Source of the DNA: a virus | Lineage: Duplodnaviria > Heunggongvirae > Uroviricota > Caudoviricetes | Length of the DNA: 37,500 nucleotides | Direction: 5' to 3' (one strand) | IMG/VR virus record: IMGVR_UViG_2713896799_000009 | Coordinates: 1 to 37,500 of that record | Part shown: in pieces, positions 1,187 to 30,495 of the stretch | Layout of the letters: every line of letters starts with the position of its first letter | How positions within the stretch are numbered: the first letter of the stretch is position 1 | Program-made: the position numbers and the translations under genes | Notes under the pieces: model-generated | The model's database searches: none | What the model saw: the letters and a program-made list of their open reading frames with translations, nothing else | What the model was told of the DNA's origin: nothing

Positions 1187-1786
1187 TCAGAATTTATAAC
1201 CGACACCCACGATGAAACCGTCAGTGCGCCAGTCACCACTGCCGGAGCCTTCATAAGCAATATCAATGGCCACGGATTCGGTCGGGTTAAACTGCACGCC
1301 AGCCCCCCACGCCAGAGACGTGTTGCTGTGGCGACCGTCATCACTTCCGGTCAGCACATCGTGCGTTTTCCCCTTGTTGTCAGTTACGCGGAGATAATCC
1401 CCGGAGAAAGTCGACACACGGCTGTAAGCCACACCCGCCATCGCATACGCGCTGAACCATTCATTCACGCGCACAGACGGCCCCGCCATTACGCTGAACC
1501 AGCGGTTACGAACGGAATCTTCATGCCAGCGGGTATCACTGTAACGGGTCAGCTGGCGATTCTTGTCTCCTGCATAGCTGAATGACGTCACCATCCCCAG
1601 TGTGTCCGTAAACTCATAACGGTATTTCACGTTAATGCCCTTCAGGTCATCGTTTCCGGGCATATCAGTATGGGACTGAAGATACCCGCCGCTTAGTGTG
1701 GACTGATGCTCTGCTGCACTCGCTGGCGTACCAGCGGCGACCAGCCAGACTACTGCAGACAGAATAACAGCACATAATTTACGCAT
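1187..1786 (-). CDS. lom: Lom/Ail-family outer membrane beta-barrel protein
   Basis: 199 aa with signal peptide; C-terminus IAYEGSGSGDWRTDGFIVGVGYKF is near-identical to lambda Lom; sits between J and stf as in lambda. Confidence 0.9.
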   Translation of the reverse strand: MRKLCAVILSAVVWLVAAGTPASAAEHQSTLSGGYLQSHTDMPGNDDLKGINVKYRYEFTDTLGMVTSFSYAGDKNRQLTRYSDTRWHEDSVRNRWFSVMAGPSVRVNEWFSAYAMAGVAYSRVSTFSGDYLRVTDNKGKTHDVLTGSDDGRHSNTSLAWGAGVQFNPTESVAIDIAYEGSGSGDWRTDGFIVGVGYKF

Positions 1787-1810
1787 AATTACCTCTCGCT
1801 TTTCTGCAAT

Positions 1811-1834
1811 AAAAAAGGCGCCATTTCTGGCGCC
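1811..1834 (-). terminator. Rho-independent terminator downstream of J
   Basis: Minus strand GGCGCCAGAAATGGCGCC followed by a T-run; then GAGAGG ribosome-binding site and the lom ATG. Confidence 0.6.
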
Positions 1835-1853
1835 CGTATTGGGGTTATAAAAT

Positions 1854-4800
1854 TCAGCTGATACTGATACCGGCTGTTGATTTCTTCATCACGACAACAA
1901 GAAGGTCGCTGATACTGGTCGTTGGCGTCCAGTTATTAGCACCATATGAAGAAACATTGAAAGTCAGGGTGACATGCCCGTGTCCGGCAGGCATATCGAT
2001 GACAGATGAAAATACCCTGCTGACATCCGTCGCGGGTTGCTGAAAGATTTCCTGTCCGTTCTTCAGCACCTGCAGCTTACAGGTTGAGTACCAGTATGAC
2101 TGTTGGTTGTTGCTGTTAAAGTTTTCATGCTTACCACCGCGAAACAGAACGGGTGGGATTACTATCTGACGGTCAAAAGCCTGGTCATCGTACACAGTGA
2201 CCGTTATTGTACCGCTGGCATAACTGCCATTTCTCGGAAAGGATTTTCCCACCGTTTTGACAATATCGCCTTCAATCTGATTGGCTGACAGTTTCCCCTT
2301 AATCTGACAGTTCTCATTTATCGTGACGTTGTTGAGCGTCCCGGAGTTCGCATTCACGTTACCGCTGATATCGGCATTTTTAGCGGTCAGCTTTCCGTCC
2401 GGTGTCAGGGAAAATGCAGGAGGATTACCGCCGCTGGTAATGGTGGGAGCCGTCAGATATTTCAGGAACACTTCATTCATGAATATCTGATCACCCTGAC
2501 CAACAAACATCGGTTTTGTGTTGCCATTTGCAGGATTAATCATCGCAATCCTGTCTGCCGCCAGCAGCACCTGACTCTGCATGCCGTCAGGGGTGTTCTC
2601 AATACCGGCACCGATACCCGCAATATAAAGGCGACCATCCTGCATCTGCTGCAGTTTCACGGCCCACATACTGTTCAGGTTATTACTGGTGTCCGTCTGA
2701 ACCTTTTGTATCTGCTGGATGGTGGCCTCCTGATCTCCCAGCTTCTGGTCCGTTGTCGTCATGATTTCACTGCTTTTTTGATCCACATACTGGCGAACCT
2801 GCGCTATCTGGCGTGCATTCTCCTCATTACTCTGACTGACCGTCTGCGTGAGTTCGCTGCTGACGTTATCCACTCTCTGGCTCACCTGTGATATACCCAG
2901 TGACAGCTCATCATTTTTTTTCGCAACCAGCTGTGTGAGGCTGTTTTCTGTCTCCCCGATTTTTTGGGTCACTTCAGCAATATCACTCTCTATCTGCTGA
3001 TTGATCTCATCCTCCAGTTGCTCAACTTCACTGCGCAATGCCGAGGCATTAATACGATCGTTCAGCTCCTGCCCCAGCAGGGTGCTGTTTATTTTCCCTT
3101 CAAAAAAATTGAGATACACCTCAGCATCATTAACCGGCCGGCCGACAGCTTCCACAAACGCTGATTTACCGACGATGTTCACACTGCGGATATAAAAGTA
3201 ATAATCATGGCCCGGCCTGATATTAATACTGGCAGCTGTCCAGTACATCGCCGTACCAAGATAGCGGGCTGTGGTTTCAACCTGCCGGATATCCGTAATC
3301 CGCTTTTCCGAGAACCAGAACTCAAACTGCACCGTCGGGTCATACACCGCAAGACGCGGGACTGCCGTTATCTGAAAATACCCCGGTATCAGTTCAATAG
3401 TGACAGGCGCTGCCGGTGCCGCAATCCGGAACGATACCGACGCCGGATCACCCTGCTGCCCCCGGGCATTTACAGCCCGGACCGTCAGCATATAACGCCC
3501 CAGCGCCAGTTGTCTGAAGCGGTATGTGGTTTCCGTCGTCCGGGCTGTGCTGACCAGCCGCTCACTGCCGTCGTCCGCTGCCACGGTCAGGCGAAGCATG
3601 AAGCTCACGCCCTTCACCACCTTCGGCGTGTCCCAGCGGGCCAGTACCTGATACTCCCCGCTGTCTGCGGTGACTTCGGCGGTAAGGTGCTGCACCGCTG
3701 GCGGTGTGACACCATTCACCGTGCCGCTCTGGTCGCCGTCAAAGTGCGCCCCGTTATCCACGATGGCTTCTTTTTCCGGTACATGCTGCACGGCAGTGAT
3801 GGCATACGTGCCGTCGTCGTTCTCACGGATACTCACGCAGCGGAACAGGCGCTGGCGCAGCGTCGGCAGCTTCAGCCCCCACACGCTGTATTCGGCAACG
3901 CCGTCAGGAACACGGCTCACTTTCACCTTCATGCCGTCGGTGACGGACTGAACCTCCACGCTGACCGGATTGCCATTTCCGTCAACCAGGCTTATCAGCG
4001 TGGTGCCGGAGGATGGCAGCGTGATTTCACGGTCGAGCGTCAGCGTCCGGGTCTGGCTGTTCACCGCCAGCACACGACCACCGGTGCTGATACCGGCATA
4101 GTCATCATCACAGATTTCAATAACATCGCCCGGTACATGGCGAAGCCCTTCGGCACCCACGCTGAAGTCCACGGTCTGCGTTTCCAGCAGTTCCGTTTTA
4201 ATCAGCCACAGCCCGGCGCGGTGCGCCTGCCCCCGGCTGGTACAGCCAAAGGCATCCATCTTCGTGACGTTACGACCGTAACGGGCAATGGCCTGCGTGT
4301 CCTCCACAAGCTCTGTTGCCGTCTCCCAGCCGTTGTCCGGGTCAATCCAGTTCACCTCAACGGCATTATGGCGGTCCTTCAGGGCGCTGAAGCTGTAGCG
4401 GAACGGCGCGCCATCATCCGGCATCACCACATTACTGCGGTTATAGGTCCACACCTTATCTGATGGTCGGTCCTGCACGAACGTCAGCGTCTGCCCGTTC
4501 CATACCGGCATACAGCGCATCGCCGAGCAGAAATCACTGAGCACATCCCACGCCTTGCGCTGTGTGGTCAGGTACGCATTACAGGTGATGCGCGGCTCCG
4601 TGCCGCCAAAACCGTCCGGCACCGACTGATCGCAATGCTGGCCGATGACATACAGCGCCCATTTGTCCACATCCGCCGCACCAAGACGTTTCCCCATGCC
4701 GTAGCGCGGATGGGTCAGCATATCCCACAGACACCAGGCCATGTTGTTGCTGTATGCCGGTTTTAACGTTCCGTCCCAGATACCGCTGTATTGCCGCGTC

Positions 4801-5555
4801 TGCGGGTTATAGTTCGACGGCACCTGCAGAATGCGCCCGCGAAGATGATAATTACGGCTCACCTGCTGGCTGCCGAACTGCTCCGAATCCACCTGTACGC
4901 CGACCAGTGCCGTGTTCGGGTAGCACTGTTTCACATCGATGATTTCGGTGTATGACGACCAGAGCGTTTTGTTCTGCAGCTGGTCTGTGGTGCTGTCCGG
5001 CGTCATCCTGCGCATCCGGATATTGAACGGGCGCGGCGGCAGGTTACCCACCACCACCGAGGCCAGATACTGTGAGGTGGTTTTGCCTTTAATGGTGATG
5101 TCTTTTTCCGTCACCCAGCCACCGTTACGTTGTATCTGAACCAGCAGGCGGACTTCCGACGGATTCCTGTCCCCCTTTGAGGTGGTTTCCACCAGTGCCT
5201 GCACGCCGAAGGTAAAACGCAGTCGGTCAATGTTTGCCGACGTGATGGTCCGGGTGATCGGCGTGTCGTATTTCACTTCCGTACCCAGCACCGTCTCGGA
5301 GCCGGAGGATTCAAATCCCTCCGGCGGTGTCTGCTCCTGCTCGCCTGCCCGGAACACCACCGTGACGCCGGAGATATTGGTATTCCCCTCGCTGTCCAGC
5401 ACCGGCGTACTGTTCAGCAGCACGCTTTTTAATCCATCCACCGGACCTTCAACCGGACCTTCGCTGATGGCATCAATCACACTCAGCAACTGCGTGGACT
5501 TCAGGTTGTCCTTCGCTTCGCGCGGGGTATGCCCCTTACTGCTGCCTTTACCCAT
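1854..5555 (-). CDS. J: Tail tip / host-specificity protein J (central tail fibre)
   Basis: 1233 aa; N-terminus [34 protein letters not shown] matches lambda J closely. Contains a coiled-coil segment about 100 aa longer than lambda J and a diverged C-terminal receptor-binding region. Confidence 0.95.
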
Positions 5556-5615: not shown

Positions 5616-6263
5616 TCAGCGACCAATCACCACAACCTGACCACCATCACCTTCATCTGCCGTGCTGATCTCCTGAGATACCACCCGCGACCCCACACGC
5701 ATTTCACCGTACAGAACGGGCAGAACATTGCCCTGGGCAACCATGTTATCCAGTGACGAGAAATACGTGTTCTGTTTGCCGTTATCTGTACTGGCTGCCG
5801 TGGGCGTCCTGGCTTTCGGTGCCAGCATCTGCGCCACACCACCCAGGATCATACTGGCCCCTGCTGCATACATACCCGATACAGCCGCGGCCCCCAGCCA
5901 GCCCACAGGGTTCCACCATGCCACCGCAATCAGCGCCGCACCCAGCACCGCCTGAAACACACCGCCACTTTTGGCCCCCTCCAGACGCGGAACGATGTGG
6001 ATCACGGCACCATTTGCCAGCGGCTCATTAAGACGGGCAGACAATTCGGTTTCACCTGCATCACGCCCGGCAATCCGTACCTGATACCAGCCGTCACTCA
6101 GTTTCTGACGAAACGCCGGGATCTGCATGGCCAGCGCCCGGATGGCTTCGGCCCCCGTTTTCACTCGAAGGTCGATGCGGCGGCCAAATCGTTGTAAATC
6201 CCCGTAAAGGCAGATGCGTGCCATGCCCGGTGACGCCAGAGGGAGTGTGTGCGTCGCTGCCAT
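5616..6263 (-). CDS. I: Tail assembly protein I
   Basis: MAATHTLPLASPGMARICLYGDLQRFG... matches lambda gpI; start overlaps the end of K as in lambda. Confidence 0.9.
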   Translation of the reverse strand: MAATHTLPLASPGMARICLYGDLQRFGRRIDLRVKTGAEAIRALAMQIPAFRQKLSDGWYQVRIAGRDAGETELSARLNEPLANGAVIHIVPRLEGAKSGGVFQAVLGAALIAVAWWNPVGWLGAAAVSGMYAAGASMILGGVAQMLAPKARTPTAASTDNGKQNTYFSSLDNMVAQGNVLPVLYGEMRVGSRVVSQEISTADEGDGGQVVVIGR

Positions 6264-6913
6264 TTGTCGGTGTACCTCTCTCGTTTGCTCAGTTGTTCAG
6301 GAATATGGTGCAGCAGCTCGCTGTCACCACAGTAAATGGCGGCATGATTCGGCACCGATGAACCAAAACAGCACAGCAGCACATCGCCCGGCTGCGCCGC
6401 TGACAACGGCACCTGATACAGCCCTGTGGCCTCCAGATTATCCAGATAGAGATTCTGACCGTTACGCCACCAGTCATCCTCGCGATGAAAATCCGGCATC
6501 TCAATCCCCGCCAGATGGTAAGCATCCCGGAACAGCGTGTAACAGTCCGTCACCCCGTGCTCAAAGCGCCGCCCGGAAAGATGTGGCACACAGCGGAACT
6601 TGTGAATCGCCCCCCGGCAGACCAGCCACCACGGCAAATCACTCTGCACCTGCAGCCGCCGGTCGGTCTCACTCAGCCAGGGCAGACCACCGGGGTGGCT
6701 GTGGACCAGCGCCACAATCTCACCCTGCATCTCTGCCCGCAGCCAGTCCTCCGGCGACATCCGGAAATACGCCTCCGGCTCACCGGAGATATTCACGCAG
6801 GGAAAATATCTTTCCCCCTCCGGTGTTCTCACCACGAAGCCGCACGACTCCGCTGGCGCACATCGCCGGGCGTGCGCCAGAATCGCTGATTCTGTCTCTG
6901 TCATGGGATTCAC
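6161..6913 (-). CDS. K: Tail assembly protein K (NlpC/P60 and JAB/MPN-like)
   Basis: 250 aa; HSHP motif (EIVALVHSHPGG) and position between L and I match lambda gpK. Confidence 0.9.
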   Translation of the reverse strand: MNPMTETESAILAHARRCAPAESCGFVVRTPEGERYFPCVNISGEPEAYFRMSPEDWLRAEMQGEIVALVHSHPGGLPWLSETDRRLQVQSDLPWWLVCRGAIHKFRCVPHLSGRRFEHGVTDCYTLFRDAYHLAGIEMPDFHREDDWWRNGQNLYLDNLEATGLYQVPLSAAQPGDVLLCCFGSSVPNHAAIYCGDSELLHHIPEQLSKRERYTDKWQRRTHSLWRHRAWHASAFTGIYNDLAAASTFE

Positions 6914-7941: not shown

Positions 7942-10900
7942 TCAGGCACTGTACAATCCTCCATCCCGACGCGATGACTGCATAATTGACACAACCCTGC
8001 TGTCGATCAGATCCACCAGTCCCCTGGCTGAGCGCGCATCTATCTCGCCATTGCTCCCTTGATTCTGAATGCTGATGTGATACACGGGAGAATAAACAAA
8101 TCCACCGCCACCATTCACATTTCCAATGGCCCTGACCCCAAGAGAGCCGTCCGCTGCCCGTGTCAGTGGCATGATTGCTTCAGGCCCGGCCTCGCCCATC
8201 AACCCGGCACCTTTCGCAAAAGCAAAATACGTCGGTGTATCCACAATAGTGTTACTGTAAGCACTCAGATTTGCCGATGTGTAAACACCACCTTTTGCGT
8301 TTGCCACTGCCCCCGAAATCCATCCGCCGACCGTACCAAGCCACCCTCCGGCACCGGAGAGTGATTTCAGTCCGTTAACAATGGCTGCATTCATCAGAAT
8401 TTTTGAAACTTCCCGGAGAACTGAACTCCCCCAGTTCCTCCAGTCCACAACATTCCCGGCCAGTGCATCGGAAATATTTGATACCAGCCCGTCCATCGTG
8501 GAAACGACAGCATCTGCCGCCTGTGAAGCATAATCGGTGGCACTGTCTGCCCAGTTGGTCAGTCCCTCCTGGAGTCCGGCATTCCAGTTATTACGTAAAG
8601 CATCGGCCTTTGCATAATAATCCTGCTGATCGCTGAGACGCTCTTCCAGATATTTTTTATTCAGTTCTTTCTCCTGTTTCCACAGAGCTTCTTCAATTTC
8701 TCCGGCCTGATACTGTCTCAGCAGCTCGTTATTTTTCTGCTCAAACGCCTGCCGGATACTCCACATTTCCTGGAGTCGTTCACGCATCCGTGAGCCTTCA
8801 CCATATCCCAGCAACTGCGCTTCGTCAGATGCCCGGGCACTGGCATTACTGTCCGCCAGACTGCTCTCATACGCAGCAAGCTGCTCACGAATCTTTTTCT
8901 GGTCGATGAGTGCTGCATTCTGCAAAAGCGTTTTTTTCTGCGCTTCTGACAGGGTTGATAATTCGCCCTGACTGACCTGATATTTCATCTTAGCCAGTTC
9001 AGTATTCTGCCCTGCCAGTGCTATTTGTTCTTTTTGCTGTTTAATCAGCCGTTTATAAATATCTTCTGTTTTTTCCGCTTCGGTCTTTTTATGCGCTTTG
9101 GGTTTATTTGCCTGGTTATTTCGCCAGGCATCCAGTGAGTTATTGATATAATTCTGTCTGGCTGTCTGATACGCCTCTCCCACAAAGCCGAGATCATCCG
9201 CAGCATAACCCAGGCGGGCACGCTCACGGGCTTCCCCCTTCAGGCGGGACAGAGCCAGTTCGCGCTCACTGTTATTCAGTGCGGTCTGCTGTTTATCATC
9301 CAGGGTTGCCTGTGGTAGCCGTAACGGTACATTCACCAGCCCCTGTCGCTGCTGAAGTAATTCATTACCGAGCCCGAGAAGGCGATTAAACTCGGTATGC
9401 TGCCCATTCATGATCAACAGGGACTGATACGCTTTGTTTTGTTCCGCGGCCTGTTGACGGATCAACGCCACCCGTCGCTCCTCCAGCCCGGCAAGCACAT
9501 CCTGAATGGATTGCGCTTTGCCCTGCATTTGTGTGAGACGGGACTGTTCAACTGCCAGTTGATTTGTTGCTTCTGCAAGCCCTTCTGTGACAGTTTTTAC
9601 CGACGTCATGTGGTTAATCATAAAACCGTTATCGGTTGTCCAGCCCGGGTTTGCCAGCACATACTGATAGCCAGCAATTTTTTCCTGTAAGGATTTAATC
9701 TTACTTTTCTGCTCGTCAATTAACCTGTTTTGCTCATCAAGTGCCTGCCGCGTCTTTTCCTCATTATCTGACGCTTCAGGAAGCGACATTGCCGACGTTT
9801 TCTGGCGAATTTCGTCGATTGTTGCGGCATACTGGCGTGCAGATTCTCTGGCCTGCTCCTGATTCTGATACATCGTGTACCAGGCCGTCGCCCCCAGCAT
9901 GACGAGTCCCGGCACACCACCAACCAACCCCAGCGCACCACTTAACAGACGACTCCCCACTGACGTGACAGTATTCAGCGTTGTCTGTGCCGCTGTTCTG
10001 GCCGCAATATTACGGGTAAGTGACGCCTGGGCAGCTGTCAGCTTCGCTTCTGCTGCGGCCTGCCTTTCGGTACCGCGAGCAGCAACAACCGCCTGTTGCG
10101 CACGATAAACCGCCGCACGCGCCCTGGCGGTTGCTATCTGTGTCCCCCGAAGTTGCGCTTCAGCAAGAGCCACTTCGTTTCTGGCTGCAGTAATTAATCC
10201 GGCAGTTGCAGATCCAGCAGACGACGCCATATTGCCAAAATATCGGGCTACCCCGACGGCAACCAGTGCGCCAGCTGCAGCAGCCACGGTATCCATATTG
10301 TCTGCAACACCATTCAACACCCCGGTGAGTGTCTTTGTCACTCCGCTTGCCTCGTTCGCACCACCAACCCAGGCCATAAAGGCGTTTTCAACTTTGGTTG
10401 CAGAGGATGAAACAGTATCAGGCATTGCTGCATATTCATCACGCAACGCCCCAAGCTGACTAATCAGTGCAGGAACAACCTTATCGGCGGTCAGTTTTCC
10501 GTTATCCGCCATGGCCTTCAGATCCTTACGGGCAACACCCATTCCCGCAGCCAGCGCACGAATAACACGATCGCCGTTCTCATTCACAGAGTTAAATTCT
10601 TCACCGCGCAGCACTCCCTGCGCCAGTGCCTGACTGAACTGCGTGATCACCGAACTGGCTTCTGCTGTACTGGCACCGGATAATTTCAGGCCCGTGGAGA
10701 TCGCCTCGGTGACTTTCAGTACCTCCTCAGAACTGTAGCCATACTCCCGCATGGAAGCTGCAGAGCGGGCAAAAAGGCTGGCGTTATCAGAAAACGCCGT
10801 TCCCGTTCTCTGGCTGATTGCCATTAATTCACGTTGTGATACCTGAAAATCATCACTGGACTGTGAAGCCTGCTTCAGACGGGCATTTACTGAATTCCAC

Positions 10901-25719: not shown

Positions 25720-26778
25720 TCATGCTTTCCACTTCAGGACACCCGAATTTCTCGCGTGCATTAAAAAACGAATCAGCAACAACAGCTGGCTGCCGTGTTT
25801 TTCTTCAAAATCTTTTACCCCGGCGTGCAGTTCGTTATGACATTTACGGCACAGCGGAATAACAAACAAATCATCAGCCTTTGTTCCCATACCTCCCAGG
25901 CCATGACCAATGATGTGATGCGGATCATCTGCCTGATTACCGCACGTCATGCATTTCTGCGTTTTTACCCAGCGCGTGTATACAGGCATCTCTTCCCGTT
26001 GTGGTTTCTGGCGCTGGAGATACTGAGCCGGAGACTCCGGATCAACGGCGATGCTTACTAACGTCTTTTCCTGGAGTGGGGGCTGTTGCTGGTGGACGTG
26101 AAGTGGCAGCGCAATATTTTTTGTGCGCTGCTTCAGTATGCTGGTGGCAGTCTGTTCTCCCGGTACGATGTCACTCTCACGGTATACGGAGCGGATTTTT
26201 TCCACCGGTAATCCCAGTGAACGACACAATACAGACTCCGGAAGCGCATCAGCCACCTGATTGCAGACCGCCCACCAGGATAATTCGGCCAGCGATAACT
26301 CCCTCTCCTGCGTACCGCTGATTGCGTGACGGATGACGTCAATCATCCATGCTGACAAGTTTTGGTGAGCAAGTTGCTCAAGTGATTCTGAGGTCTGGTC
26401 ACGCAACTGGTTGTCGCAGTGCCAGCACAACACCATTGCGCCGGTACCATAACGGTGAATGACGGTTTCACTGTGGTGATAATCACCGTGTGGCCACTGG
26501 CAGGATTTAATATGGCGCAACAGCCAGTCAGACAGTGCACCAGCGCCGCCAGCAGCACGAATCACACGCTCATTGCTGAAAAATGGCAGTAATGATTTAT
26601 CCTCCGCCAGCGGCTGGCGAACGGCAGGGACGACTCCGGATGGCAGGCCGCACATGCTTTTCGGTTCCGGCTCCACCAGCACTCGAGGATTATGAAATAT
26701 CTGTATGGATTCACGGCCCGGCTTAAGGACCACCAGCCCAAGCTCAGGCACCAGAACAGGTCTAAGTAATACCCGCAC
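25720..26778 (-). CDS. YdfU-like protein (DUF968, C-terminal Cys/His zinc-binding motif)
   Basis: 352 aa; C-terminal CMTCGN...HHIIGHG...CRKCHNELH; in Qin, ydfU sits next to the Q gene and rem. Confidence 0.65.
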   Translation of the reverse strand: MRVLLRPVLVPELGLVVLKPGRESIQIFHNPRVLVEPEPKSMCGLPSGVVPAVRQPLAEDKSLLPFFSNERVIRAAGGAGALSDWLLRHIKSCQWPHGDYHHSETVIHRYGTGAMVLCWHCDNQLRDQTSESLEQLAHQNLSAWMIDVIRHAISGTQERELSLAELSWWAVCNQVADALPESVLCRSLGLPVEKIRSVYRESDIVPGEQTATSILKQRTKNIALPLHVHQQQPPLQEKTLVSIAVDPESPAQYLQRQKPQREEMPVYTRWVKTQKCMTCGNQADDPHHIIGHGLGGMGTKADDLFVIPLCRKCHNELHAGVKDFEEKHGSQLLLLIRFLMHARNSGVLKWKA

Positions 26779-27219: not shown

Positions 27220-27375
27220 TTACTCCTCAGGTTCGTAAGCTGTGAAGACAGCGACCTCCGTCTGGCCGGTTCGGATTCGTACCTCGCAGAGGTCTTTCCT
27301 CGTTACCAGTGCCGTCACTATGACGGTTAAACAGATGACGATCAGGGCGATTAACATCGCCTTTTGCTGCTTCAT
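27220..27375 (-). CDS. hokD: Hok/Gef-family type I toxin (HokD/RelF-like)
   Basis: MKQQKAMLIALIVICLTVIVTALVTRKDLCEVRIRTGQTEVAVFTAYEPEE matches RelF/HokD as recalled; an in-frame upstream extension to 27432 corresponds to a mok-like frame. Confidence 0.85.
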   Translation of the reverse strand: MKQQKAMLIALIVICLTVIVTALVTRKDLCEVRIRTGQTEVAVFTAYEPEE

Positions 27376-27999
27376 AGCCTGCTTCTCCTTGCCTTTCGGC
27401 ACGTAAGAGGCTAACCTAGATTTGCCGTTCATAGATTGAGCCTCAGATTAATGTTAAGCGTCTTGTAGGACGCGTAATGTTAACTGGGGCTTTTCTCTAT
27501 CTGCCTTTGGTGTTCATGCCTGAGACAGATAGCCTCAAGCACCCGCAGCCATTCTACTTAACTCCCGTTACCTCGCCAATATAAAATCAATCAGAAAGGC
27601 GATCCATAAGAACAACAGCAAGACAATAAATTGCCATTACAGCTGCAATAGCCAGCGCACATTTGAGAACCAGCACGACAACCTCCTGTATTGGACGTAC
27701 ACCAGTCCTGATAAATATGAGGCTGTCTCATCATTGATGAGATACAACTATTGGGTATAGTTTCTGTGATTTTGTTCTGTAGAAATGGAACACAACAACC
27801 AGTCACCACCAGCACTTCTTTAAATACGCCAAGTCCGACGCAAGCTAACCTTCTAGTCCGCTTTGAGCGAAAAGCAGACTGTCACGCGTTGAAGTTAATT
27901 GTATTACTTAGATAAACACTATCATTTTCCTGACGTTAAGTTGTATCTTTGATAGGATTAAAAAACGTATAGATAGCTTATGCTACTGAGGGAATAAAA

Positions 28000-28809
28000 A
28001 TGACGAAAATTAGTGAACGATGGAAGCACAATGGCATTACTGAAGGTTATTGCAATATTTGTGGGAAATATGGCTTGCTCACAAAAGATCATGTTCCTCC
28101 AAAGTGCGCCATAACCTTAGGCCCTGTTTTGCAGAAAACAGTTAGCGAATTTTTTGGTATTCAGGAACCAGTTAAACCATTAAATGCTAAAAATGGCTCT
28201 TATTTCAGAACCATTTGCAGCCACTGTAACAATAAGGTATTAGGTGGGCTCGATGTTGCAATTGAAAATGTAACAAAGTCCTTTAAAGAACAGTTAAGTC
28301 GATATATGAATGGTATGAATGTATATCCATTCATTAGAATACCTTTTGATAGCATATCTTTCACTAAGGCTATGATTGGGCACGTGCTATCAGCAACTTC
28401 AGTTGAAGATTGTAAAAAAGAACCCGTAGATAGCCCCTTCTATACACCTTTAAAGGATTATGTTTTGGGTAAAAATTCAAGTTTTGAGGAAACTCATGAT
28501 ATTTACTACTGGTTTTACCCACACAGAATGCACATATCCGCTCAAAGTGTAGCATTTATGAACGAAGGACATGTGGCATTTATTTGTGCTTTACATTTTT
28601 TTCCTATCGGTTTTATTATCACAATGAAAAATGAAGGAACATACCCTGCCCACTCTACAAAATTAGAACTTGAAGATAAATTCCTTACATTTAATATGAC
28701 CTCTATAAATTATGAGTATACGACATTTCCATTTGTAAATCTTAAGGGAAACCAAATGTATGCGATAAGCAACGGTCATACTTGTGTGAGTTATCCAATA
28801 ATTAAGTGA
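28000..28809 (+). CDS. Hypothetical protein with N-terminal HNH-like nuclease motif and an unrecognised C-terminal domain
   Basis: 269 aa; GAGGGAA ribosome-binding site; motif C-x2-C...DH-VPPK...N...C-x-H-C-N-N-K in the first 80 aa; about 190 aa of C-terminus without recognisable similarity; AT-rich gene and promoter region unlike the flanking DNA. Confidence 0.6.
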   Translation: MTKISERWKHNGITEGYCNICGKYGLLTKDHVPPKCAITLGPVLQKTVSEFFGIQEPVKPLNAKNGSYFRTICSHCNNKVLGGLDVAIENVTKSFKEQLSRYMNGMNVYPFIRIPFDSISFTKAMIGHVLSATSVEDCKKEPVDSPFYTPLKDYVLGKNSSFEETHDIYYWFYPHRMHISAQSVAFMNEGHVAFICALHFFPIGFIITMKNEGTYPAHSTKLELEDKFLTFNMTSINYEYTTFPFVNLKGNQMYAISNGHTCVSYPIIK

Positions 28810-28955
28810 CGGCTAAATCATACAATCTACGCATGTTCACTTTCTACATATACCATCTATAATGTCCGCTGTTGGCACAAAGCGGACAACCACGCTAGCT
28901 CTACCCTGTGCCACAAAATGTCAATTTGCATCTGAACTAATGCACTTTAATCTCG

Positions 28956-29378
28956 TCACTTCAATAAATACCGAACATCACCCTGATAAAACGACAATAT
29001 GCGCTGCATAACTTCACTCTTCCGGCACTCGCGACAGATTATGTTCTGACGCCTGTCGTAGCGACGTATTTCTCCGTCAGGTAATGACCAGATAAGGTCC
29101 GGATCAACCGCAGATGGTTTCTTCAGCTTTGCCCTTGAGAGCTTTTTACGGGCATTTTGCCAGTCCTTACGCGCCTGTTCAGACGGGAATAACCCGTAAC
29201 CAGAGTTGTATACATCGCCGCTGGCAACCAGCTCTCTTGCGAGAACGCTCATCAGATATCTTGTCGCACCTGTCTTGACTTCCAGTTGCCGTAACGTCTC
29301 ACGCCCACTCTGGCGTACGAGTTCAACAACCTGTCCTTTAATTTTTTCCCGCTCTTCTTGTGTAAAAACTTTTGCCAC
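28956..29378 (-). CDS. Hypothetical replication-region protein
   Basis: 140 aa, basic, with C-terminal CRECRK motif; directly downstream of the O-like gene; not recognised. Confidence 0.45.
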   Translation of the reverse strand: MAKVFTQEEREKIKGQVVELVRQSGRETLRQLEVKTGATRYLMSVLARELVASGDVYNSGYGLFPSEQARKDWQNARKKLSRAKLKKPSAVDPDLIWSLPDGEIRRYDRRQNIICRECRKSEVMQRILSFYQGDVRYLLK

Positions 29379-29418: not shown

Positions 29419-30495
29419 TTACCCCCTGAAGCCCGGCGGAATTTCGTTATCCGGTTCAGAAATATGATTCACACAACGCTGGTTGTTCGTGCCGCTTACC
29501 GGGAGCAACCAGGGGTTCTCAAAATTCCGGTCCGGTCCAAAAAACGTCGTCGCTCGCTGAACAAATTCCGTTCCCGTTTTCCCGGTAGCCGCCAAGTATC
29601 TTGCGTAACGCCTCACGCCATCCAGCATGGCTTCTGGTGGCACCCCCTCGCGTAATCTGGCCTTCCAGGCACTGAAAGCGGATTTCTTCGGGTTTGCTCC
29701 GGCACGCAACGGGTACTCCCGCCAGACCTGTTCGAACACATCCGGATAATCCACTCGTCCCACAGACTGCCCGGTGTTTTCCGGGACTACCCGATCGGCT
29801 TCCCGCTGAATGGCGGAATCGGCTTCGGGCTGCTGCAGTTGGTGTGATTGCTCCGGCCTTGCGGTCATCACCTGCTGCACAGCGCCCGAATCGGCTTTCA
29901 GCGCATACGCTGAATCGGCTTCCGGTGTCGTGCCTGCTGGCTGACCAAGATTGACGGTCTGAACATCCCCTGCCTGGTTCGTGGCGTTTTTTACGCCATG
30001 GACCATAGTGTTTTGATCTTCTTGATCTGTATCTTTATCTGTATCTTTATCTGTCGTGACTCGTCGTGACATGTGCGTGACATTTCGTGACGCGCCGTGA
30101 CAATCGCCATTTTGTTCCCGCTTTCTTTCCCTCTCTCGCTGCGCCCTCTTGCGCTCTGCAGGAGATTTTGCGGTTTGCGAAATATTGCCGTTGTCCTCTT
30201 TAAGCACCTGGCGTTTTTCCCATCCAGTGATTAAATCACCATCAAGTACCCGCCCCTGCATCGTCTGCAAAATTGAATCAATTACCTCTTCTGTCACGTC
30301 GAGCGCACTTGCCAAATCTTCTGTCGTGACATCAATGTGACCTCGCGTGACATTTCGTGACGCGCTCACCAGGAGGTGGATATACACTGCCATCACTGTT
30401 GCAATTGGCTGCCCTGACACTCTGGCAATTGTTCGCCACTTAGGGTCATTTGGCATGTCATGCCATAATCTGAGCCAGGCGTTAGCCATACTCAC
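29419..30495 (-). CDS. Putative replication initiator (lambda O-like) containing the origin iterons
   Basis: 358 aa; lies where O sits in a lambdoid early-right operon; contains two clusters of helically phased CGTGAC repeats and an AT-rich repeat block; the protein shows matching ASRNVT repeats. Confidence 0.6.
   Translation of the reverse strand: MSMANAWLRLWHDMPNDPKWRTIARVSGQPIATVMAVYIHLLVSASRNVTRGHIDVTTEDLASALDVTEEVIDSILQTMQGRVLDGDLITGWEKRQVLKEDNGNISQTAKSPAERKRAQRERERKREQNGDCHGASRNVTHMSRRVTTDKDTDKDTDQEDQNTMVHGVKNATNQAGDVQTVNLGQPAGTTPEADSAYALKADSGAVQQVMTARPEQSHQLQQPEADSAIQREADRVVPENTGQSVGRVDYPDVFEQVWREYPLRAGANPKKSAFSAWKARLREGVPPEAMLDGVRRYARYLAATGKTGTEFVQRATTFFGPDRNFENPWLLPVSGTNNQRCVNHISEPDNEIPPGFRG
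30015..30361. repeat. Putative replication origin: iteron clusters and AT-rich direct repeats inside the O-like gene
   Basis: CGTGAC five times at about 10-11 bp spacing (30055-30101) and four times (30325-30361); identical 21-mer GCGTGACATTTCGTGACGCGC at 30075-30095 and 30345-30365; AT-rich TCTGTATCTTTATC repeats at 30015-30054. Confidence 0.6.

Follow-up and report, generated by a model that had tools for sequence, protein, structure and literature searches.

An AT-rich island of ~1 kb in an E. coli prophage carries a single ORF of 269 aa, and we consider it probable that its product is a stand-alone anti-phage (or anti-mobile-element) nuclease which is expressed from the lysogen. This reading is preferred because, at the site of this gene, related phages have known anti-phage genes; in two hotspots, it takes the same position as validated defence genes. 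The island is best explained as a self-contained mobile cassette of ~1.03 kb, which consists of a left palindrome (pal-L), a promoter region, one gene and a right palindrome (pal-R). The window, i.e. the whole stretch of DNA that was analysed, has a length of 37,500 nucleotides. The features of the cassette and its surroundings are as follows.

27220-27544, minus strand: hokD toxin gene and sok antisense RNA, left neighbour; conserved slot flank, outside the cassette
27856-27879, plus strand: pal-L, GTCCGCTTTGAGCGAAAAGCAGAC, 24 bp (9-6-9) with spacer GAGCGA
27880-27999, plus strand: AT-rich 5′ region of the cassette, presumptive promoter
28000-28809, plus strand: CDS of 269 aa (WP_000161640.1, PHROG 21495), from a family that is otherwise unannotated
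28039-28254, plus strand: predicted zinc-stabilised His-Me (HNH/HNN) finger, residues ~14-85, from motif and model
28255-28806, plus strand: C-terminal alpha+beta domain, residues ~86-269, a fold without known relative
28864-28887, plus strand: pal-R, GTCCGCTGTTGGCACAAAGCGGAC, 24 bp with spacer TGGCAC; stable hairpin
28956-29378, minus strand: DUF977 gene, right neighbour and last gene of the replication module; conserved slot flank
29419-30495, minus strand: replisome organiser, convergent with the 269-aa gene

The island and its gene

The first-pass annotation had described an AT-rich island next to the hok locus and convergent with the replication module, and this description holds. GC content is 0.33-0.38 over ~27750-28950, as compared to 0.43-0.60 on either side and 0.504 for the entire window. 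The ORF is present on the plus strand at the position and length that had been given, and starts with ATG. It has a GC content of 0.35 while its neighbours have 0.48-0.54, and the same shift is seen at third codon positions (GC3 0.30 as compared to 0.49-0.55). The proposed ribosome-binding site GAGGGAA is found at 27988-27994, with the ATG 5 nt further on. The hokD gene (27220-27375, minus strand) adjoins the ORF region, followed by sok RNA at 27400-27544 on the same strand (Rfam, E 5e-19), and on the other side the DUF977 gene and the replisome organiser are both encoded on the minus strand. Genes for RusA and a DUF968 protein are adjacent in this nin-like region. The 269-aa gene is thus on the strand opposite to the phage early operon, a placement that is typical of morons expressed from the lysogen.

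In every other context in which the gene occurs, it is accompanied by 86-144 bp upstream of its ATG; the shared DNA begins at 27856 for plasmids and at 27914 for pro147. This 5′ region is transferred together with the gene, and the cassette presumably has its own promoter within 27880-27999. A scan for the sigma-70 consensus over 27880-28000 gave no good match.

A divergent His-Me finger fused to a domain of unrecognised fold

The family to which the protein belongs is large, with at least 1,767 representative clusters (E ≤1e-3), nearly all of which have ~270 aa. It had been claimed that the N-terminal region carries a C-x2-C, DH, N, C-x-H-C-N pattern. The motif is present as C18-x2-C21 ... 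D30-H31 ... C73-S-H-C76-N77, and in 47 sequences with identities down to 22% the residues C18, C21, H31, C73, C76 and N77 are invariant while D30 is kept in at least 90%. The middle asparagine did not stand up: N65 varies in distant family members, and it is the adjacent G66 that is conserved. From this pattern, C18, C21, C73 and C76 are predicted to be zinc ligands, and D30-H31 together with N77 are predicted to be catalytic. In the AF2 model, H31 ends the strand 24-31 and N77 is located on the helix 74-81.

The layout resembles that of HNH_5 and T4 endonuclease VII (PF02945), where two CxxC pairs flank the beta-beta-alpha core, an Asp-His pair ends the first strand, and an Asn on the helix directly follows the second CxxC. 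In T4 endonuclease VII, the corresponding residues are C23, C26, D40, H41, C58, C61 and N62. The 269-aa protein differs by an insertion of ~35 residues (~32-67), which splits the two halves of the finger, by scores below the cut-off, and by the fused 185-aa domain without relatives. Endonuclease VII forms small dimers by domain swapping, whereas the model of the 269-aa protein predicts a compact monomer unit with two domains.

The claim of an HNH/His-Me finger nuclease is thus sustained by motif layout and residue conservation, though not by the Pfam scores. HNH_5 (PF14279), which has a gathering threshold of 27.5 bits, matches the window protein with 11.6 bits (E 0.29) over residues 18-35 only, and the scores of relatives reach 17-19 bits. 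Among 47 diverse members, 24 match HNH_5 at E ≤0.1; the best value is 1.9e-6, but most are at E 0.01-0.1 and split in two. These matches come as two halves in correct order around the insertion, which is why the assignment remains below threshold. With the catalytic His and Asn in place and both CxxC pairs present, the HNH superfamily is a supported assignment for the N-terminal domain, as judged from sequence comparison.

An alternative is that the protein acts in binding or regulation and that its four cysteines build a structural zinc ribbon, with the DH and N residues in some other role. Every HNH model match is below threshold, the best Pfam match of the window protein is to the zinc-finger family zf-TFIIIC (E 0.02), and a comparison of the AF2 model with PDB and BFVD gave no significant structural match to any protein, nucleases included. 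We nevertheless regard a non-nuclease as improbable. Sequence and profile searches of the PDB with the protein and two alignments (A1, A2) returned nothing at E ≤10. The source names "chaperonin" and "metal-binding protein" are not backed by any domain search and were discarded.

AF2 predicts a compact structure with high confidence (pLDDT 92.2, pTM 0.91). Since neither PDB nor BFVD contains a significant match to it, an unknown fold is assigned to the C-terminal 185 residues, in agreement with the earlier statement that the remaining ~190 residues are unrecognised. Invariant residues of this domain are D85, G127-H128, W171, Y173, P174 and P202. The gene is under purifying selection, with dN/dS values of 0.14 and 0.06.

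Two hotspots with alternative cargo

The lambdoid slot between hok/sok and the DUF977/replication genes harbours at least 10 cargo classes. In sister prophages, the same slot with identical boundaries is occupied by PD-T7-1 (E 4e-157), by AbiH or by a SIR2 protein. Further occupants are a HEPN/RES-NTD1 protein, a RelA_SpoT protein that matches PDC-S33, and a DUF7380+DUF4209 protein that matches PDC-S39. PD-T7-1 is an experimentally validated defence system (PMC9519451).

The cassette with the 269-aa gene also occupies the P2-like fun(Z) locus, which has been described as a defence-enriched hotspot (PMC9519451; bioRxiv 10.1101/2024.10.15.618418). Two other cargo types of the P2 slot are again single proteins with an N-terminal HNH and an unrecognised C-terminal domain. 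The classical occupant of this tail-fibre/sheath locus is P2 Fun(Z), which blocks phage T5. The locus is common to both proteins and the same two palindromes flank it in P2 itself; homology between the 269-aa protein and Fun(Z) (528 aa) was considered and rejected (hhalign probability 0.3%).

A correspondence with a catalogued defence system was not obtained: no PADLOC-DB 2.0.0 family matches the window protein at E ≤10, and distant family members give only weak matches to PtuB and PDC-M01B (E 1e-3 or worse). A literature search gave no mention of the accession, nor was there a match in the DefensePredictor supplements. The gene resembles the single-gene systems PD-T4, PD-T7 and PD-lambda (Vassallo et al. 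2022) in its prophage niche, AT-richness, occurrence in either orientation and patchy distribution. It differs from the PD-type systems in having no similarity to PADLOC 2.0 entries and in having another catalytic fold and C-terminal domain. From a prophage hotspot of E. coli, Rst_DUF4238 was reportedly described by Rousset and colleagues in 2022 as a single-gene nuclease defence.

For the anti-phage nuclease, the following mode of action can be envisaged. The N-terminal His-Me finger, with its T4-endonuclease-VII-like CxxC...DH...CxxCN layout, would cut nucleic acid, with the metal held by D30 and N77 and with H31 as general base. Specificity or gating would be supplied by the C-terminal domain, which is tightly packed and of novel fold. 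This domain may hold the nuclease in an inactive state until a cue from a phage is received, as in abortive infection, or it may limit the nuclease to a phage-specific substrate, e.g. modified or branched DNA, as in type IV restriction. Either would make a lone nuclease tolerable without methylase or antitoxin. The defence phenotype, the nuclease activity, its substrate and the gating by the C-terminal domain are thus presumed rather than observed. Compared to McrA, in which the HNH is C-terminal, the domain order is reversed, and structure comparison of the C-terminal domain revealed no SRA, EVE, YTH or McrA-N-like reader fold.

Should the phenotype be confirmed, this would be a compact defence nuclease of a single 269-aa protein, in which a domain of unrecognised fold would provide sensing or specificity. 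The slot from hok/sok to the DUF977/replication genes is a precisely bounded defence hotspot in lambdoid prophages of the Rac/Qin type, and several of its cargos, which are uncharacterised, become defence candidates by the same positional logic.

Distribution across mobile elements

A near-identical gene is found in lambdoid prophages, at the P2-like fun(Z) hotspot and on IncF plasmids. Recent horizontal spread has therefore occurred across three classes of mobile elements. Carriers are 141 of 5,426 E. coli genomes (2.6% of complete genomes). The gene is also carried by epidemic resistance plasmids of the IncF group in Shigella sonnei, Klebsiella and E. coli; the family as a whole extends across Gammaproteobacteria and beyond. 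Homologues also occur in variable islands of the chromosome and in an inovirus prophage; some lie at prophage ends (inovirus, P2-like), one adjoins a terminase, and others are found in chromosomal islets. In Plesiomonas, they adjoin HEPN_AbiU2, Shedu SduA_C and PLDc genes. In 8 different contexts there is no conserved neighbour and the gene is always solitary. When phage records were searched by tblastn, only pro147 and phage 204576 matched.

This distribution bears on whether the nuclease serves the lytic cycle of the phage itself, either as a junction resolvase or debranching enzyme, as a terminase-assisting HNH protein, or in degradation of host DNA. The resemblance of the motif to T4 endonuclease VII is in line with such a role (Pfam Endonuclease_7 is touched by 2 of the 47 relatives, E 0.012), and so are the terminase-adjacent homologue and the location beside RusA and DUF968, in the region where lambdoid phages keep their recombination nucleases. 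However, one or both slot flanks are present in 3,371-5,010 of the E. coli genomes while only the 141 carriers have the gene, which is thus dispensable for these phages. Its transcription runs counter to the early operon, RusA is already encoded, and the identical protein also occurs on conjugative plasmids, in an inovirus and in chromosomal contexts where there is neither tailed-phage packaging nor lytic recombination. A lytic function is accordingly considered to be improbable.

Selection for stability of the element would be expected if the protein were the toxin of an addiction module, with an unannotated sRNA, a peptide or autoinhibition as antidote. The occurrence of a solitary nuclease gene on plasmids, in prophages and in integron-like arrays, where toxin-antitoxin genes are typically found, would fit, as would the adjoining hok/sok. 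An antisense RNA could be driven by a weak promoter-like match that lies directly past the stop codon on the minus strand (28846-28817). Yet the cassette has no second ORF, the 7 promoter-like matches are not in excess over the 5.4 expected from shuffled sequence, and Rfam detects nothing inside the cassette, sok being restricted to the flank. Moreover, the plasmid copies reside in IS26-bounded passenger DNA, outside the maintenance region. We judge an addiction toxin to be unlikely; since many toxin-antitoxin modules act in Abi defence, this alternative overlaps with an anti-phage nuclease.

Palindromes at the cassette boundaries

Pal-L marks the left end of the DNA that is shared with plasmids. 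Its left arm and loop are constant across the slot while the right arm is cassette-specific. The window contains only two matches to GTCCGCT-N10-AGCGGAC, namely the related palindromes pal-L and pal-R, where 0.09 would be expected by chance. Pal-L is found at the left junction of 10 of the 10 lambdoid cargo classes and of 7 of the 8 P2-like ones. In both hotspots, pal-R is present 3′ of all cargo classes, and it also occurs on the plasmids and in P2 itself. In sister prophages, PD-T7-1 shares not only the slot but also these palindromic boundaries.

The first-pass annotation had named a free-standing homing endonuclease as the other option. An AT-rich island with only one gene, an HNH-type motif and sharp insertion boundaries are what would be seen if the protein cut alleles that lack it and were copied in by repair. 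The same palindromes, however, bound at least 17 unrelated cargo classes without a nuclease of this family, and mobility is therefore independent of the 269-aa protein. The sites are many and unrelated (lambdoid slot, fun(Z), IS26-bounded plasmid DNA, inovirus end, terminase-adjacent position, chromosomal islets), domain searches found no NUMOD, IENR1 or HTH modules, and the family is conserved over its full length including the globular domain of 185 aa. A check of related prophages for an empty site had been proposed; none was found among the 5,426 E. coli genomes, the nearest case being an internally deleted AbiH cassette. Homing is thus rejected as a very improbable explanation.

Pal-R forms a DNA hairpin with a dG of -9.6 kcal/mol (z -4.9). 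That the palindromes are classic intrinsic terminators was considered and dismissed: a terminator scan calls neither of them, and there is no T-run on either strand after pal-R or pal-L. The annotated V-operon terminator of P2 is a distinct sequence.

Like integron cassettes and REP/BIME elements, the cassettes are promoter-poor single-gene units between short imperfect palindromes. It is conceivable, though we consider it doubtful, that pal-L and pal-R are heterospecific recognition or crossover sites of an unrecognised, integron-analogous process of cassette exchange, which would carry defence cassettes of a single gene from one carrier to another (lambdoid and P2-like phages, plasmids, chromosomal arrays). 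The HNH gene would then be an example of such a cassette, and its product would stand for a new family of defence proteins with a C-terminal phage sensor of novel fold. In contrast to integron cassettes, there is no GTTRRRY core (absent from pal-L and pal-R in direct reading, where the sixth base of GTTGGCA does not fit) and, in place of one long attC hairpin, there are two different palindromes with the loops GAGCGA and TGGCAC. Also, an empty site with a single palindrome is missing from the E. coli genome set, and no integron integrase is annotated at the slot, which lies inside the prophage early operon. A literature search with the palindrome strings and their pseudo-peptides gave no match. 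A 2026 preprint on P2/P4 hotspots explicitly left the swapping process unexplained. A palindrome pair that is found around the cargo of two unrelated phage families and accompanies the cassette onto plasmids provides a testable handle on the swapping of defence genes.

The exact 24-mer occurs in at least 120 genome stretches, and the palindrome family is REP-like and found across phyla. In many genomes it is multi-copy and extragenic. Its members are short, imperfect, intergenic and multi-copy and form tandem clusters, as is characteristic for REP/BIME-like sequences. In Pseudolabrys and Xanthobacteraceae, there are many copies per MAG, with tandem hairpins that share stems. In Phytobacter and Enterobacter, there are tandem arrays with composite junctions of two hairpins.

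The HNH gene and its setting

The window represents a Rac/Qin-type lambdoid prophage of E. coli, with its integration site beside ompW. The gene under study is the only plus-strand gene from hokD on its left to the DUF977 gene on its right; the genes for the DUF977 protein, the replisome organiser, YdaT and the Cro-like protein, right of it, are all on the minus strand.

27400-27544, minus strand: sok RNA (Rfam match)
27988-27994, upstream of the CDS: Shine-Dalgarno sequence GAGGGAA
28000-28809, plus strand: CDS with ATG start, 269 aa (RefSeq WP_000161640.1, "hypothetical protein")

The ORF, its ribosome-binding site and the surrounding AT-rich stretch, as described in the first-pass annotation, were all found, with a GC trough of 0.33-0.38 over about 27750-28950 compared to 0.43-0.60 on both sides. 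As for the comparison with neighbours suggested there, the gene (GC 0.35, GC3 0.30) lies below four neighbouring genes (0.48-0.54 and 0.49-0.55, respectively), and the whole window averages 0.504 in GC. The annotation had also given the gene its own promoter region. Such a promoter is plausible, since the gene is in every case accompanied by 86-144 bp of its upstream DNA, but a promoter consensus scan revealed no good sigma-70 match upstream of it.

A promoter-like match (TAGAAA-18-TATGAT, 9/12) at 28817-28846 on the minus strand, just 3′ of the stop codon and pointing into the gene, could drive an antisense RNA. As such matches are not above shuffled expectation in this region, it is only a lead. 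Near the HNH gene, a 352-aa DUF968 protein is encoded at 25720-26778 on the minus strand. This protein is itself a His-Me finger of group 7 (YbcO/YdfU; PMC5714182), so that two unrelated HNH-superfamily genes and RusA occur within 3 kb.

The protein family and its HNH-type motif

Pfam yields only sub-threshold matches for the window protein (HNH_5, E 0.29, residues 18-35; zf-TFIIIC, E 0.02), and NCBIfam and PADLOC searches, the latter proposed earlier as a check for defence systems, gave no match. In PHROGs, the protein is matched along its entire length by phrog_21495, a family without functional annotation. A word-indexed search returned 93 relatives of about 270 aa from Enterobacterales, Vibrio, Photobacterium, Plesiomonas, Pseudomonas, Alishewanella and Motilimonas, none of them with a precomputed Pfam domain; the names "chaperonin" and "metal-binding protein" attached to some are unsupported. 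An exhaustive profile search extended this to 1,767 representative clusters at E ≤1e-3 (339 at ≤1e-30), nearly all of 255-300 aa and matching end to end. The HNH gene family is large, architecturally uniform and uncurated.

In an alignment reaching down to 22% identity, C18, C21, H31, C73, C76, N77, D85, G127, H128, W171 and P202 are invariant, and D30, P33, P34, G66, Y173 and P174 are kept in at least 90% of the sequences. Zinc-stabilised His-Me fingers of the HNH_5 / T4 endonuclease VII type show this same motif order, CxxC ... DH ... CxxCN. Among 47 diverse members, 24 touch HNH_5 at E ≤0.1 (best 1.9e-6) and two touch Endonuclease_7, single HNH_5 matches scoring 17-19 bits against a cut-off of 27.5 bits. 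These matches are split: residues ~5-40 align to profile positions 1-28 and residues ~73-93 to positions 33-53, which is the pattern expected from an insertion of ~35 residues between the motif halves. At the family level, Pfam evidence for an HNH domain is real but weak. Of the HNH motif proposed in the first-pass annotation, the four Cys, the DH pair and the last N (N77) are conserved family-wide, although the Pfam match stays below threshold. It is quite improbable that the protein is a zinc protein devoid of catalytic activity, as the invariance of D30-H31 and N77 speaks against it.

Cassette boundaries are imperfect palindromes

The most unusual aspect of the locus is that the cassette is framed by palindromes.

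27856-27879: pal-L, left junction, 24-bp imperfect palindrome, GTCCGCTTTGAGCGAAAAGCAGAC
28864-28887: pal-R, right junction, 24-bp imperfect palindrome, GTCCGCTGTTGGCACAAAGCGGAC

DNA shared with plasmids covers 27856-28879/28896 and that shared with the P2-like phage pro147 covers 27914-28887; in sister prophages with other cargo, the flank match extends up to 27879 and resumes from 28861. The two palindromes have the same orientation and agree at 18 of 24 positions. Each has a 9-6-9 structure with the stem GTCCGCT/AGCGGAC, the loops being GAGCGA (pal-L) and TGGCAC (pal-R). GTCCGCT-N10-AGCGGAC occurs only at these two sites in the 37.5-kb window (0.09 expected by chance), and the pal-R hairpin is stable (dG -9.6 kcal/mol, z -4.9). 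Classic terminators were rejected, since no T-run is found 3′ of either palindrome, and they are not attC sites.

Across prophages, cassettes differ from palindrome to palindrome by 0-2 mismatches per 1,032 bp; the flanks show up to 96/406 and 29/413 differences, those closest to the cassette being at 27850 and 28919. Palindromes were compared in L017-L125, L127, L006 and L007. In all 10 lambdoid cargo classes, the left end is the constant GTCCGCTTTGAGCGA plus a right arm that is semi-complementary and specific to the cassette, and the right end is an entire pal-R. At the fun(Z) hotspot of P2-like phages, the pair surrounds at least 7 of 8 cargo classes. In P2 itself, fun(Z) is framed by the two palindromes, neither of which is the annotated V-operon terminator, and pro147 has lost pal-L via a short-homology deletion. 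The pair also accompanies the cassette on IncF plasmids, where further pal-R-like copies punctuate modules. Sites in other loci are:

L127 (comparison locus): 1337-1360 and ~3433-3457
L006 (plasmid): 9611-9634
L007 (plasmid): 10538-10561

The proposed check for an empty site in related prophages found no empty slot among 5,426 genomes. The smallest content is an internally deleted AbiH cassette which retains both palindromes.

The lambdoid slot as a defence hotspot

Of 5,426 complete E. coli genomes, only 91 contain the 1.3-kb region in this flanking context, whereas 1,728-5,010 contain one or both flanks. The HNH gene itself occurs in 141 of the 5,426, at 120 chromosomal and 29 plasmid places. 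In sister prophages, the same flanks enclose SIR2, a DUF5677 protein, QueH, an alpha/beta-hydrolase and others. When 72 IMG/VR contigs sharing the flank on the DUF977 side were compared, their cargo formed at least 10 discrete size classes. Cargo between the palindromes, read in L017, L023, L024, L057, L066, L070, L084 and L112, includes:

PD-T7-1 (E 4e-157), experimentally validated (PMC9519451)
AbiH with a partner protein
RelA_SpoT protein, matching PADLOC candidate PDC-S33
DUF7380+DUF4209 protein, matching PDC-S39
HEPN/RES-NTD1 protein
GNAT proteins, plus several proteins without an assigned function

Given these products, the slot is a defence-enriched hotspot whose occupants, the HNH gene among them, are interchangeable. 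It corresponds to the hok/sok-DUF977 interval of Rac/Qin-type lambdoid prophages and has precise boundaries; no earlier description of it was found in the literature searched. Three further cargos of the slot (310, 484 and 333+340 aa), whose annotation is absent or marginal, are defence candidates by position.

Occurrence on other mobile elements

The copy of the gene in pro147 has 94.5% nucleotide identity and is located between the genes for the tail sheath and the tail fibre. This is the fun(Z) locus, which has been described as a second defence hotspot of P2 (PMC9519451; bioRxiv 10.1101/2024.10.15.618418). Another P2-like contig (L035) has a complete cassette copy (99.8% identical). A 100% identical protein is encoded on about 48 plasmids, mostly conjugative IncF, from E. 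coli, Klebsiella, Shigella sonnei and Enterobacter, where the gene is IS26-bounded passenger DNA beside mph(A) or a truncated integrase. In three plasmids (L006-L008; NZ_CP025845, NZ_CP099771, NZ_CP023918; locus 5857-6897), IncF elements of Shigella sonnei, E. coli and Klebsiella, the cassette adjoins the mph(A)-mrx-mphR macrolide-resistance module, so that a clinically relevant resistance and a candidate phage-defence gene are transferred together. Distant homologues occur in:

Serratia: edge of a P2-like prophage
Vibrio cyclitrophicus (L011/L012, 9177-12030; 48% identity): distal end of an inovirus-type filamentous prophage
Enterobacter: prophage, adjoining terminase
Plesiomonas shigelloides (CP027852; L014, 16.8-kb locus): cassette-array-like region
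Pseudomonas: serine-recombinase island
Motilimonas: small islet

The Vibrio homologue follows Zot and secretin genes and is flanked by a DUF2726 gene and one for a 362-aa unknown protein; the site has the look of inovirus cargo DNA that may include defence genes. The Plesiomonas locus has short, mostly co-oriented genes at ~400-500 bp spacing, including Fic, NUDIX, HEPN_AbiU2, PLDc/NgoFVII-like and Shedu SduA_C, and resembles a chromosomal integron cassette array as judged on gene layout alone.

As its neighbours are conserved nowhere, the gene is a single-gene unit. A homing endonuclease, the alternative raised in the first-pass annotation, is very improbable and was rejected: the boundaries are common to unrelated cargo, insertion contexts are many, there is no empty allele, and the protein is without DNA-binding modules.

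Proposed function

We consider it rather probable, though far from certain, that the HNH gene is a recently acquired, stand-alone, single-protein defence nuclease, a reading put forward in the first-pass annotation and strongly supported by the genomic context. Two rivals are less consistent with the distribution: a toxin or addiction function, which is unlikely, and a part in the lytic cycle of the phage itself, which is quite unlikely. If many hosts tolerate a lone nuclease whose catalytic residues are intact, without methylase or antitoxin, its activity must be gated or restricted to certain substrates. For the defence nuclease, the most economical reading of the sequence would be an effector plus sensor in one polypeptide. 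Cleavage of nucleic acid would fall to the Endo VII-like HNH head, while the conserved novel C-terminal domain (D85, H128 and W171 invariant, Y173 nearly so) would set when, or on what, it acts. Either a phage cue might switch the nuclease on, as in abortive infection, or modified or structured phage DNA might be restricted in a type-IV-like manner.

Two other single-gene cargo types of the fun(Z) slot (403-aa ORF in L039/L086, 344-aa ORF in L116) begin with an HNH like that of CBASS effectors (PADLOC Effector/SAVED_HNH and PDC-M68A, E down to 1e-31) and continue into an unannotated C-terminal domain. This suggests that an HNH head with an unknown tail is a recurrent solution.

Distribution of the palindromes

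The exact 24-mer of pal-R occurs in at least 120 genome stretches (L128-L247, e.g. L139, L184, L224, L246). Among the matches listed, a few are from other Enterobacterales (L143, L155, L174, L187), most are from soil Alphaproteobacteria (Pseudolabrys, Xanthobacteraceae, Hyphomicrobiales) and some from Actinomycetota and Acidobacteriota MAGs. Phytobacter (L143) and Enterobacter (L174) have tandem arrays of the form pal-R, ~18 nt, pal-L, cargo. In soil bacteria and MAGs, pal-R is one hairpin of a compound, multi-copy, REP-like repeat, in which tandem hairpins share the stem and differ in their loops (TTGGCACA, TCGGGGGTA, TTGACCCA). The 22-nt specified motif is identical across phyla; no record of the repeat was found in Rfam or the literature searched.

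The palindromes may provide the short homology that RecET/Red-type exchange between co-resident elements would use; a RecE-like exonuclease is encoded in the window. Alternatively, an unrecognised site-specific recombinase may act on them, or they may be hairpins with an insulating or RNA-end role, carried along as passengers of the cargo.

A 49-aa ORF at 28862-29011 (plus strand), with the N terminus MSAVGTKRT, is artefactual and stems from the palindrome (ATG TCC GCT ... AAG CGG ACA). Any occurrence of the repeat family would yield pseudo-peptides of this kind (MSAIGTKRT, MSAFGGKAD, MSAFDPKRT), which may lead to false gene calls.
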